NCBI RefSeq assembly: GCF_002854065.1
Contig: NZ_CP024147.1
DNA: 64,000 nt
Strand: one strand, 5' to 3'
Source: Escherichia coli
GTDB taxonomy: Bacteria > Pseudomonadota > Gammaproteobacteria > Enterobacterales > Enterobacteriaceae
Each line of letters begins with the position of its first letter. Positions within the stretch are counted from its first letter, which is position 1. Of this stretch, positions 8,465-11,832 are shown in pieces. The notes below the pieces were generated by a model. The model had not been told where the DNA came from, searched no databases, and saw only the letters and a program-made list of their open reading frames with translations. The translations under genes and the position numbers were made by a program.

Positions 8465-11083
8465 TCATTGTTGAGCCAAAGCCTGATCCGATGGTTGTGC
8501 CGTTTCGCTCCGCTCCGGGCGGCGCGGAATAAACGATACAACCCAGGAAACCAGAGAAGTCAGCACACGGAATATGCCCTTCACCGAAGAAGGCGCAAAC
8601 TCCGCCAGATGGCGGTAGCCACGGAAGCCGAGCTTCAGAATATCCAGCAGACTTTCCAGCGGCTTATCTTCCGGATAGCTGTCCTGCCAGAGCGCCCATG
8701 TATCCGCACGGGCAAACGTACACTGCACAAAATCGATATGTTGCTGGGTGGTGAGCGGCATTAATTTCAGCCCAACTTCATTACCCATCACGCGCGCCAC
8801 CTGGGTCGGGAAGACGTATTCCTGCTGACCGCGTTTAAGCAACAGATTCACTTTCTGCCCTTCCAGAATCTGCGCCTGACCGTTGATCTTGATCCCCAAA
8901 CCACCGTCGGAGAAATCCTGAACGGTACACGAAAAGAGGTGACCATCTTCGCGGGCAATTGCCGCGGGCATCGTCATCTCCACGCGGTGCGATCGGCGTA
9001 CCTGTTTGCTTTCTACCGATACTGCAACTGCGCCGCCAAGAACAATCAGGTTGTAGAATACCCACACCATACTGACGACCACGGTGAGCATCTCGGTTGG
9101 CGGGCCATAGAAGTAGCGCCAGATGCCTACCGCAACGCCCACCAGGTTGAGCAGGACAAGGAAGATGTAGGGCCGCGAGATCACCCAGTCGACGTACTCT
9201 TCTTCCACCAGTCCACCTTTGGCGGTGACGTTAAATTTGCCTTTGTGCGGGTTAATCAGCGCCACCAGCGTCGGTGGTGCGATATACCACGCCAGCACCG
9301 TTTCGTAGATTTCACTCCAGAAAGAGTGGCGATATTTGCCCTGGATCTTGGAGTTGGTCAGGCTGGCATGGATCATATGCGGCAGCACGAATAGGGCGAT
9401 CATCAACGCTGGCGCATAGATGATGTAGGCATGAAGCAGCAGGAACGCCAGCGGCGCAGTCAGGAAGATCAGCCGTGGAATGCCCGACAAGAAGTGGAAC
9501 ATGGCGTTGACGTAGCACAGCCGCTGAGCAAACTTCAGCCCTTTACCGGTGAGCGGGTTATCGAGACGGAAGATTTGCACCATCCCGCGCGCCCAGCGAA
9601 TACGCTGACCGATATGCGCCGACAGACTTTCGGTCGCCAGCCCCGCCGCCTGCGGAATACGCATATACGCGGAGGTATAGCCACGACGGTGCAAACGCAG
9701 AGAAGTATGCGCATCCTCAGTCACGGTTTCGACAGCAATGCCGCCAATTTCATCCAGCGGCTTACGGCGAATCACCGCACAGGAACCGCAGAAGAAAGTG
9801 GCGTCCCACATATCGTTGCCATCCTGCACCAGACCATAGAACAGCGTGCCTTCGTTCGGTGTTTTACGAAAACGCCCCAGGTTGCGTTCAAACGGGTCCG
9901 GTGAGAAGAAGTGGTGCGGCGTCTGCATCATCGCCAGTTGTTTTTCTTTCAGGAACCAGCCCATGGTCATTTGCAGGAATGAACATGTGGGGACATGGTC
10001 GCAGTCGAAAATCGACACGAACTCGCCCTTGGCATATTTCAGCGCATTGTTGATGTTGCCCGCTTTCGCATGTTCATGAGTGGTGCGGGCGATATATTTA
10101 ACCCCCACGTTTTGCGCAAACTGGCGAAACTCTTCCCTGCCGCCGTCATCAAGGATCCAGATGTTCAGCTTATCTTTCGGCCAGTCGATACCCAGCGAGG
10201 CGTAAATGGTATTTTTCACCACGTTGAGATCTTCGTTGTAAGTCGGGACAAAGATATCCACCGACGGCCACAGCGACATATCTTTCGGCAGTGGTACTGG
10301 CTGACGATTCAGCGGCCATACCACCTGGAAGTAGCCGAGCACCAGCACAATCCACGCGTAAGTTTCAGCGAACAGCAGAATAAGCCCGCACACCAGGCTG
10401 ACCGGATCGTCCCAGTTCAGCGTAGAGGTGTAACGCCACCAGATATAACGGCAAGAAACGGTCAGCGACAGCACAATCAACATTAGCGCCGAAAAGCGCC
10501 CCGGCATCCGCCGTACGATCAGCGCTACCCCCCACAGCAGCATCAGGAAGATAAACTGCGCCAGCGGGTTAAACGGCTGAGTAACGCAGATTAACGCCAG
10601 AATCAGCGAGAAGGTGACGATGATACCGAGGATCAACCGCCGCGCCCCGGCACTCAAATGACCGAGCTCTTTTTTCTCATCAAGATGCTGTGTTTTATGG
10701 CTAACGCGCTCAGGCAGCTCGTTCATCCATTGATGGTAACGTCCACGAATATTCTGCAGACCTGAAAATGCCCGCCTGCGCGGTTTCGGCGTTTCTTTGC
10801 GCGATGCACCGATCAGTAACCAGCATGTTTGAATGAGATAACGGACCGGGTCCAGCGGACGCGGACGCGAGGCGTTGATATGCGGATACAGGTTTTTATG
10901 TTCTGCGCGAATACGCTGCCAGCGCGGGTGCTCCAGCGGAATAAAAATCCAGGCCAGGATCATCCAGAAACAGCCGAGCGTCGCGCTGAAAGCCGACGCA
11001 CCGTGACGACGATAATCGCGATAACGCCCGATAAGCCGCGCGTTGACCGGCGGGATAAGCAACCACCGGGTCAGGATACTCAT
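8465..11083 (-). CDS. bcsA: Cellulose synthase catalytic subunit BcsA (GT2 domain, PilZ c-di-GMP-binding domain)
   Basis: ORF 8465..11131; start trimmed to MSILTRWLLIPPVNARL (872 aa); glycosyltransferase motifs plus PilZ-type RxxxR region; start codon overlaps the bcsQ stop (ATGA). Confidence 0.9.
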   Translation of the reverse strand: MSILTRWLLIPPVNARLIGRYRDYRRHGASAFSATLGCFWMILAWIFIPLEHPRWQRIRAEHKNLYPHINASRPRPLDPVRYLIQTCWLLIGASRKETPKPRRRAFSGLQNIRGRYHQWMNELPERVSHKTQHLDEKKELGHLSAGARRLILGIIVTFSLILALICVTQPFNPLAQFIFLMLLWGVALIVRRMPGRFSALMLIVLSLTVSCRYIWWRYTSTLNWDDPVSLVCGLILLFAETYAWIVLVLGYFQVVWPLNRQPVPLPKDMSLWPSVDIFVPTYNEDLNVVKNTIYASLGIDWPKDKLNIWILDDGGREEFRQFAQNVGVKYIARTTHEHAKAGNINNALKYAKGEFVSIFDCDHVPTCSFLQMTMGWFLKEKQLAMMQTPHHFFSPDPFERNLGRFRKTPNEGTLFYGLVQDGNDMWDATFFCGSCAVIRRKPLDEIGGIAVETVTEDAHTSLRLHRRGYTSAYMRIPQAAGLATESLSAHIGQRIRWARGMVQIFRLDNPLTGKGLKFAQRLCYVNAMFHFLSGIPRLIFLTAPLAFLLLHAYIIYAPALMIALFVLPHMIHASLTNSKIQGKYRHSFWSEIYETVLAWYIAPPTLVALINPHKGKFNVTAKGGLVEEEYVDWVISRPYIFLVLLNLVGVAVGIWRYFYGPPTEMLTVVVSMVWVFYNLIVLGGAVAVSVESKQVRRSHRVEMTMPAAIAREDGHLFSCTVQDFSDGGLGIKINGQAQILEGQKVNLLLKRGQQEYVFPTQVARVMGNEVGLKLMPLTTQQHIDFVQCTFARADTWALWQDSYPEDKPLESLLDILKLGFRGYRHLAEFAPSSVKGIFRVLTSLVSWVVSFIPRRPERSETAQPSDQALAQQ

Positions 11084-11832
11084 GATGCACTCCCGACTGG
11101 CGTTTTCAGCCCGGAATAGTTCAACAGGCACCAGTTCGCCAGCGTCAATATCTCTTCAGCCGCCAGCGCATCACTGCGATATTCACCTACTGGTTGCTTA
11201 GCCGCCAGGCATTCAGCCATCGCTTCATCACGATGAATGAGCATCGGCAGTAATCGGCGCTGGCTTTGCAACCAAAGCTGGTAAATATCGTCCTGAACCT
11301 GACTGCCAATACGGAAGTCATTAATCAAAATATGTGCGCCATCCGGCAGCGCTTGCTGATGCAGTCGGATATGGCAGTTGGCATCCACATTGACGATTGC
11401 CAGCGAGTGATCGCACAAACTCAGCAGCTGGTGGGTTATCTGCGAGGCATCACGCGGTAAGTCGATTAAAATCCACTGGTAACGCCCGCTGGATTTTAGT
11501 TGCTGTAAGCCGGAGCAAATATCGCTCAGCCGGGTTTGCCAGTGCTGTGGATTTTCTTGTTCTTCAATGGATAACTGACCAAAAGGTAGCAAATCGAGCT
11601 GCGAGGTGTAGCGCAACCCAGCGTCACGCCAGTCCTAGCCATCCAGCATCGCTCTGGCCCAGCCCTGACGGTGGGTAAAATCAACATTAAATGACAGGCG
11701 CAACAAGTTGTCCGGGCAGGCATCGACCACCAGGACATTTTCTCCCAACATTTGTAATGACCAGGCTAATGCGGCGGTGATGGTTGTTGTCCCCACGCCT
11801 CCCCGCACCCCCTGCAATCCCAGTACGGCCAT
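11080..11832 (-). pseudogene. bcsQ: bcsQ (yhjQ) MinD/ParA-like ATPase, interrupted by an in-frame TAG at codon 66
   Basis: One reading frame encodes MAVLGLQGVRGGVGTTT(Walker A)...AMLDG, then TAG at 11635-11637 (plus-strand cta), then DWRDAGLRYTSQLD... through to the stop overlapping bcsA. The track splits this into a 65-aa and a 178-aa ORF in the same frame. Confidence 0.85.

Follow-up and report, generated by a model that had tools for sequence, protein, structure and literature searches.

The bcsQ gene of the cellulose locus is interrupted in the Escherichia coli DNA analysed here, a stretch of 64 kb from contig NZ_CP024147.1. This whole stretch is called the window below, and its bcs genes are read on the minus strand unless stated otherwise. 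Comparison with related genomes makes it highly probable that this bcsQ is a genuine inherited pseudogene. It appears to have been broken by a single C-to-T change at codon 66 that arose inside the lineage of the strain, with deamination at a Dcm site as the likely cause, and that has recurred across E. coli. The proposed course of events is short. The transition would turn codon 66 from CAG (Gln) into TAG, and translation would end after 65 residues, leaving the P-loop end of a MinD/ParA-like (SIMIBI) ATPase. Loss of BcsQ would block cellulose secretion, and the untranslated remainder of bcsQ, together with lost translational coupling, would reduce expression of bcsA and bcsB. The features on which this reading depends are the following.

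11080..11832, minus strand: bcsQ pseudogene of 250 codons with a single internal amber, from minus-strand translation; its position matches that of the intact bcsQ in CUWW06, the closest complete genome.
11635..11637, minus strand: TAG at codon 66 (Q66*), where a C-to-T change at 11637 has replaced CAG, from comparison with CUWW06.
11635..11832, minus strand: residual N-terminal open reading frame (ORF) of 65 amino acids, holding the deviant P-loop region only, from the ORF list.
11080..11616, minus strand: downstream ORF of 178 amino acids starting at an in-frame TTG (codon 73), from the ORF list and called by gene callers.
11080..11083, minus strand: ATGA overlap of the bcsQ stop (TGA, 11082-11080) and the bcsA start (ATG, 11083-11081), a signal of translational coupling.

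Translation of the minus strand yields one bcsQ frame that is open except for the TAG at 11635-11637, as the original prediction had claimed, and the protein reads ...RAMLDG*DWRDAG... around codon 66. The same translation agrees with two further parts of that prediction: codon 6 is TTG (Leu), so that a K-12-type TAG is absent from codon 6 of this bcsQ, and the stop of the gene overlaps the start of bcsA as ATGA on the minus strand. With Gln restored at codon 66, the protein matches the crystallised E. coli BcsQ of PDB entries 6YBU, 6YAR and 6YBB over residues 1-250 (E = 7.7e-168), and precomputed annotation places hits to PF06564 (CBP_BcsQ) on both halves of the gene. The window lacks an uninterrupted bcsQ frame of 250 codons owing to the codon-66 TAG, and the gene is therefore a pseudogene of the BcsQ family. 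The 65-residue product is predicted to lack most of the BcsQ fold, and the 178-residue downstream ORF would have no P-loop if ever translated.

The ancestral state of codon 66 can be read from a very close relative. CUWW06 (NZ_CP182139) is colinear with the window. About 61 kb of the two can be aligned, with 15 single-nucleotide polymorphisms (SNPs) between them, and they also differ in insertion sequences (IS). Codon 66 of CUWW06 is CAG, and its bcsQ is annotated as intact (WP_000279541.1); at plus-strand position 11637 the window has A and CUWW06 has G. The nearest other differences between the two lie 1.65 kb and 4.25 kb from the TAG, the sequences being identical from -1652 to +4252 nucleotides (nt) around it. 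CAG-bearing "twins" of this kind were found for three TAG haplotype groups. The window and CUWW06 show 2 differences in 9.6 kb, and in the pairs 1EC213/cq9 and BY63/300709 the TAG/CAG base is the only difference in 3,001 bp. The original prediction had expected CAG to be ancestral, which is borne out by CUWW06 and by the CAG twins of the two other TAG haplotypes. The mutation would then have arisen within the lineage of the window, whose closest complete relative keeps CAG.

The TAG also recurs in independently obtained sequence. The assembly of run ERR3970133 (contig of about 24 kb) carries the window haplotype with the TAG and shows 1 difference in 3.15 kb, and the same combination is found in 2 further samples. 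The 178-residue C-terminal product specific to this haplotype is present on at least 10 contigs from independent runs or assemblies, all of them split into 65 + 178 residues. A bcsQ that is really intact, with a false TAG produced by sequencing or base calling at a methylated Dcm motif, is thus hardly credible. Such an artefact would have some plausibility, since errors of nanopore base calling at CC(A/T)GG motifs are known (PMC6703438) and since whole-gene megablast found no 100% identical match to the window's bcsQ among complete genomes. However, the documented nanopore miscalls at Dcm motifs affect the central A/T, which is read as G/C (A-to-G or T-to-C), and not the inner C, which would have to be read as T (PMC6703438). 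Moreover, the TAG is shared by EDL933, by hundreds of other genomes and by the sequence type 95 (ST95) set of Nhu et al. (2024). A sequencing error at 11635-11637, which had been named as a possible objection, is not supported, given the TAG in the independent ERR3970133 assembly, and the TAG is treated as a real allele that appears to be inherited within a small lineage.

The distribution of the allele in E. coli is wide. Of 5,426 complete E. coli genomes, 315 carry the TAG at codon 66, as determined with 30-mers for three local haplotypes in which the mutated base is central, so that wild-type genomes cannot seed a match. Among the matches listed (60 of the 315), 40 matched only the O157-type 30-mer; almost all of these are O157:H7 or strains whose genomes are of similar size, and they include EDL933, TW14359, EC4115, Xuzhou21, SS17 and 86-24 derivatives. 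Another 20 of the matches listed were to the two non-O157 30-mers and include SF-173, W224N, EC69, TUM2826, 1297KP and T309.Ta3. A longer TAG-centred query, a 61-mer, has an exact match in 12 complete genomes, and all ten of the A/B1-type genomes checked among these matches are annotated by RefSeq as "bcsQ, pseudogene, internal stop". The bcsQ gene of EDL933 (EDL933_RS23545) has the same TAG and is likewise a RefSeq pseudogene with an internal stop. In public assemblies the exact 65-residue product is recorded in 11,721 index blocks, and the contigs that carry it number at least 1000. The idea of a private mutation, which came from the missing whole-gene match, was dropped because the shorter TAG-centred queries matched many genomes.

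The allele has been catalogued before. Supplementary Data 1 of Nhu et al. (2024, Nat Commun; PMC10881479) lists six ST95 strains with BcsQ Q66*; in the tree they occupy positions 70 and 89-93, and strains with wild-type BcsQ stand in between. One strain of that table, SF-173, is also among the TAG 30-mer matches. A literature search found no paper specifically discussing Q66*, though the allele is already in that catalogue. Q66* is neither private nor novel: it is an already known, annotated and recurrent allele. The original prediction had described an independent route to a state like that of K-12. This stands as far as the lesion is distinct from that of K-12; the route is not new, since 315 of the 5,426 complete genomes share the TAG.

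Q66* is one of many lesions of this gene. Nonsense 30-mers for all 38 changes of the transition type in bcsQ matched 534 complete genomes. The O157-type Q66* 30-mer lay outside this set, so that the O157:H7 genomes are to be added to the count, which also leaves aside stops of the K-12 type or from other transversions, as well as frameshifts and insertions of IS elements. bcsQ is among the most often broken genes of the E. coli cellulose pathway, and this frequent breakage fits the convergent loss of cellulose published by Nhu et al. (2024). The natural nonsense alleles W68*, Q178* (in ST95), Q131* (including O121:H19), W24*, Q78*, Q86* and Q99* resemble the window's allele in being single-base stops, often on several backgrounds. 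The W68* allele formed by TGA is found in about 310 complete genomes, many of them from carbapenem-resistant clinical strains; in the codon-68 loci sampled (L038-L043) it lies on one haplotype, and the pattern resembles a single large clonal expansion. A second W68* allele, formed by TAG, occurs on a different haplotype. The O55:H7 strain DEC5E carries a different bcsQ stop, Q7*.

Whether the TAG spread from one origin or arose repeatedly can be judged from the flanking sequence. In a 3.1-kb alignment from bcsR to mid-bcsA of 33 TAG-bearing loci, the TAG is found on at least 11 groups of haplotypes, and these differ from each other by 9-100 SNPs across the 3.1 kb. SNPs at -25, -13, +11 and +17 separate at least 5 local haplotypes in the sequence within 30 bp of the TAG. 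The O157:H7 allele and those of ST95 affect the same gene and codon as the window's by the same CAG-to-TAG change, and in EDL933, as in the window, bcsR and the start of bcsA are annotated as intact around it. The O157:H7 allele, however, stands on a different flanking haplotype, with local SNPs within 13 bp of the site. Over the 3.1 kb, the window haplotype differs from the O157 type by 47 SNPs and from the TUM2826 (L021) and W224N (L033) types by about 97. Given these distinct flanks and the near-identical relative CUWW06 with CAG, the TAG of the window would be independent of that of O157:H7, and the two alleles do not appear to be identical by descent.

Import of the TAG by homologous recombination from another Q66* lineage, for example O157:H7, is very improbable by comparison. 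E. coli does recombine, and the bcs haplotype of the window is moderately near the O157 type by the SNP count just given. However, the window equals the CAG-bearing CUWW06 from -1652 to +4252 nt around the site. Every other TAG haplotype has flanking SNPs relative to the window, at -13 and +11 in the O157 type and at +50 and -270 in the BY63 type. The imported tract would thus be about 24 bp long if it came from the O157 type, or under 320 bp if from the BY63 type, and would have carried just one base. Recurrent mutation appears by far the simpler reading, because under spread by recombination the tracts would have to measure roughly 24-320 bp and bring along no other change. E. coli would then have acquired the same mutation many times in independent events, O157:H7 being the most visible case.

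The functional consequence is predicted from what is reported of BcsQ. In the structural and functional accounts of the secretion system (PMC7439463, PMC7840130), cellulose secretion in E. coli is described as absolutely dependent on BcsR and BcsQ, and BcsQ as a SIMIBI ATPase that forms ATP-sandwich dimers and influences the detectable level of BcsA. The same sources report that mutation of T15 to lysine and mutations of N152, R156 and N171 abolish or progressively reduce secretion. N152, R156 and N171 are all located past codon 66. The strain of the window is predicted to make no cellulose, because BcsQ is required and the residues needed in its ATP pocket lie past codon 66. In addition, about 555 nt of untranslated bcsQ and the lost ATGA coupling probably lower the expression of bcsA and bcsB, by analogy with K-12. 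K-12 is one of the related known cases and also has an amber in bcsQ upstream of bcsA. Repair of codon 6 in W3110 is reported to restore cellulose, with loss of BcsQ or polarity discussed as the cause (Serra, Richter and Hengge 2013, as summarised in PMC5944007). The lesions themselves differ: that of K-12 is a TTG-to-TAG change at codon 6, a T-to-A transversion outside any Dcm site, whereas that of the window is a C-to-T change at a Dcm site in codon 66.

Two points weigh against a complete loss of function. An in-frame TTG at codon 73, or readthrough of the amber, offers a way past the stop, and the one phenotype linked to the same TAG is confounded. EDL933 is recorded as showing no calcofluor staining, but curli are recorded as absent too (PMC4287979), so that its negative phenotype is confounded by missing curli/csgD expression. 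If an amber suppressor tRNA, readthrough or restarting at codon 73 made the stop leaky or let it be bypassed, both cellulose and bcsA expression would largely be kept. The TTG lies 7 codons past the TAG, gene callers do call the 178-residue ORF there, and the suppressor status of the strain lies beyond what the window shows; the sole tRNA inside the window is tRNA-Pro(CGG). A restart product, however, would be without residues 1-72, including the deviant P-loop, and the reported abolition of secretion by the T15 change (PMC7840130) concerns a residue in this missing part; a product without the P-loop should be inactive. The lack of calcofluor staining in EDL933, and further bcs lesions in several Q66* or W68* loci (split bcsA in L031, L039 and L041), also fit a dead pathway. 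Such a bypass is therefore judged unlikely, and loss of BcsQ function is retained as the reading of the codon-66 stop.

The position of the mutated base suggests how the allele arose. The inner C of CCWGG is the target of Dcm methylation, and deamination of the resulting 5-methylcytosine gives T. The sequence at the site is GGCCAGGAC in CUWW06 and GGCTAGGAC in the window; the ancestral GGC CAG GAC holds CCAGG, and the change is from its inner C to T.

11634..11638, minus strand: destroyed Dcm site, now CTAGG and ancestrally CCAGG, the changed base being the inner C, from comparison with CUWW06 and the twins.

Spontaneous deamination of 5-methylcytosine to T is most likely the chemical origin of Q66*, judging from this context. 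The classic amber hotspots of lacI, described by Coulondre and colleagues in 1978, are said to be CCAGG sites with an in-frame CAG, in which the inner C-to-T change gives TAG. The window's site has the same form, whereas its excess over sites outside Dcm motifs is a modest one, and clonal sampling confounds it. In natural populations, too, Dcm sites are reported to be hypermutable (Cherry 2018, as cited in PMC10710837). The argument made here for a role of Dcm is a comparative one. Both dcm and vsr lie outside the 64 kb of the window.

bcsQ contains four Dcm sites. There are 104 single-base changes that would create a stop in the gene, and in only 2 of them is the altered base a Dcm-methylated C: W24* (TGG-to-TAG) and Q66*. 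The other natural nonsense alleles named above, W24* excepted, are not at Dcm-methylated cytosines. The existence of two such sites gave a prediction for codon 24, which was then checked. On 5 haplotypes, 7 complete genomes (loci L044-L050) have W24* by TAG (CCTGG to CCTAG), each with an "internal stop" in its annotation, versus 0 complete genomes in a 30-mer search for W24* by TGA, the G-to-A change at the adjacent unmethylated position. The 14 CAG-to-TAG sites of the gene that are not Dcm sites were counted with interleaved, strand-alternated 30-mers in one query. Together they account for 56 genomes (0-16 per site, mean 4, five sites with none), compared with 315 for Q66*. The index blocks of public assemblies number 11,721 for the Q66* product, 6,730 for W68* and 181-308 for Q78*, Q86* and Q99*. 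Of the bcsQ truncation products for which such counts were obtained, that of Q66* is the most widespread.

Several observations weigh against a special role of the Dcm site. All ten other N-terminal truncations looked for (Q56, W58, W68, Q78, Q86, Q92, Q96, W98, Q99 and Q110) exist in public assemblies, on 29 to at least 1000 contigs. Non-Dcm alleles are also found on several backgrounds: Q99* (TAA) on 7 haplotype groups in 10 loci and Q78* on 4 groups in 7 loci, with Q86* and the W68 TGA on one haplotype group each. Since Q78* and Q99* are multi-haplotype as well, counts of haplotype groups do not by themselves single out Q66*, and counts of genomes lump independent events together with clonal expansion. 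Other 5-methylcytosine positions in the 3.1-kb alignment, whose assembly biases the comparison, showed no significant excess of variants (3 of 22 versus 133 of 1676, p = 0.26). A search at 6 synonymous 5-methylcytosine positions and 24 matched synonymous controls matched 550 genomes together, several of the sites being lineage polymorphisms, for example of O145:H28. Finally, only one of the 15 SNPs between the window and CUWW06 hits a Dcm site, where the probability of one or more such hits by chance is about 0.10.

These observations would be expected if Q66* were an ordinary random C-to-T change without any role of Dcm, its recurrence coming from selection or relaxed constraint for the loss of cellulose together with very deep sampling. 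The multi-background alleles Q99* and Q78*, the presence of every other truncation examined and the unremarkable variability of other Dcm positions in the region are all on its side. So are the 27 independent mutations with loss of function in bcs genes that are reported for ST95, where cellulose loss is tied to virulence (Nhu et al. 2024, PMC10881479). This account is possible but rather doubtful, because it leaves aside that the mutated base is exactly the methylated C, that the Q66* product leads the index counts, and that at codon 24 the Dcm-site G-to-A change outnumbers the adjacent one. The Dcm hotspot and ordinary mutation plus selection are not mutually exclusive. A real contribution of Dcm to the recurrence of Q66* has moderate support from these comparisons and is slightly favoured. 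The Dcm context would probably raise the recurrence of Q66* on top of a general, possibly selected, loss of cellulose genes. For the stronger proposal, that Dcm methylation makes W24 and Q66 built-in "self-destruct" codons and that mutation bias, not selection alone, steers lineages such as O157:H7, ST95 and that of the window to the same amber, the arguments appear evenly balanced.

In practice, the strain should be scored as cellulose-negative, with curli-only or matrix-poor biofilms, although its bcs locus looks complete, and the cause differs from that in K-12. What is mildly new is that the most widespread bcsQ stop with index counts falls on a Dcm-methylated C, which gives a simple example, open to testing, of how mutation bias may shape convergent gene loss. 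If the self-destruct proposal is true, it would be a counterpart in natural populations of the lacI amber hotspots, on a trait that is linked to virulence and biofilm formation.

Within bcsRQABZC, from which bcsEFG is divergent, bcsQ is flanked by bcsR and bcsA; the other genes are as follows.

11844..12032, minus strand: bcsR, intact, 62 amino acids, from the ORF and comparison with CUWW06.
8465..11083, minus strand: bcsA, open, 872 amino acids, with a private missense change R367C at nt 9985, from the ORF check and SNP list.
6115..8454, minus strand: bcsB, intact, 779 amino acids, from the ORF check.
5002..6108, minus strand: bcsZ, intact, 368 amino acids, from the ORF check.
1547..5020, minus strand: bcsC, open, 1157 amino acids, with a missense change T564I at nt 3330 relative to CUWW06, from the ORF check and SNP list.
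12305..15740, plus strand: divergent bcsEFG operon with three intact ORFs, from the ORF check and comparison with CUWW06.

The expectation that the remaining bcs genes are intact proved correct, bcsR, bcsA, bcsB, bcsZ, bcsC, bcsE, bcsF and bcsG all being full length and without internal stops. Three differences between the window and CUWW06 fall inside bcsQABZC, and each of them alters a protein: Q66*, BcsA R367C and BcsC T564I. BcsA R367C is missing from the otherwise identical ERR3970133 assembly (L015, of the same haplotype). These changes may reflect relaxed constraint following the loss of bcsQ, or chance. Elsewhere, several Q66* or W68* loci have second lesions in bcsA, bcsE or bcsG, the split bcsA genes mentioned above among them. 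Such extra lesions are compatible with decay after a first hit, in small numbers.

Other differences between the window and CUWW06 lie outside the bcs genes. In unpolarised comparison, ten of the 15 differences have A/T in the window for G/C in CUWW06, eight of them A for G on the plus strand. The tandem ldr toxin repeats (15743-16147 and 16226-16632) show the same C/T difference from CUWW06 at the homologous positions 15942 and 16425, which suggests that gene conversion may have occurred between the copies. CUWW06 has an IS5 in yhjY, and the yhjY of the window is without it. In the lpf (long polar fimbriae) operon, copies of IS1 at 31175-31942 and 32461-33228 truncate lpfB. The second of them has 8 mismatches relative to the first and stands elsewhere than in CUWW06. 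At 49332-50661 the window has an insertion of 1.33 kb relative to CUWW06 at the 5' end of yiaA. It contains ORFs of 136 and 301 amino acids, which we take to encode InsC-like and InsD-like proteins, respectively, of an IS2-type element.

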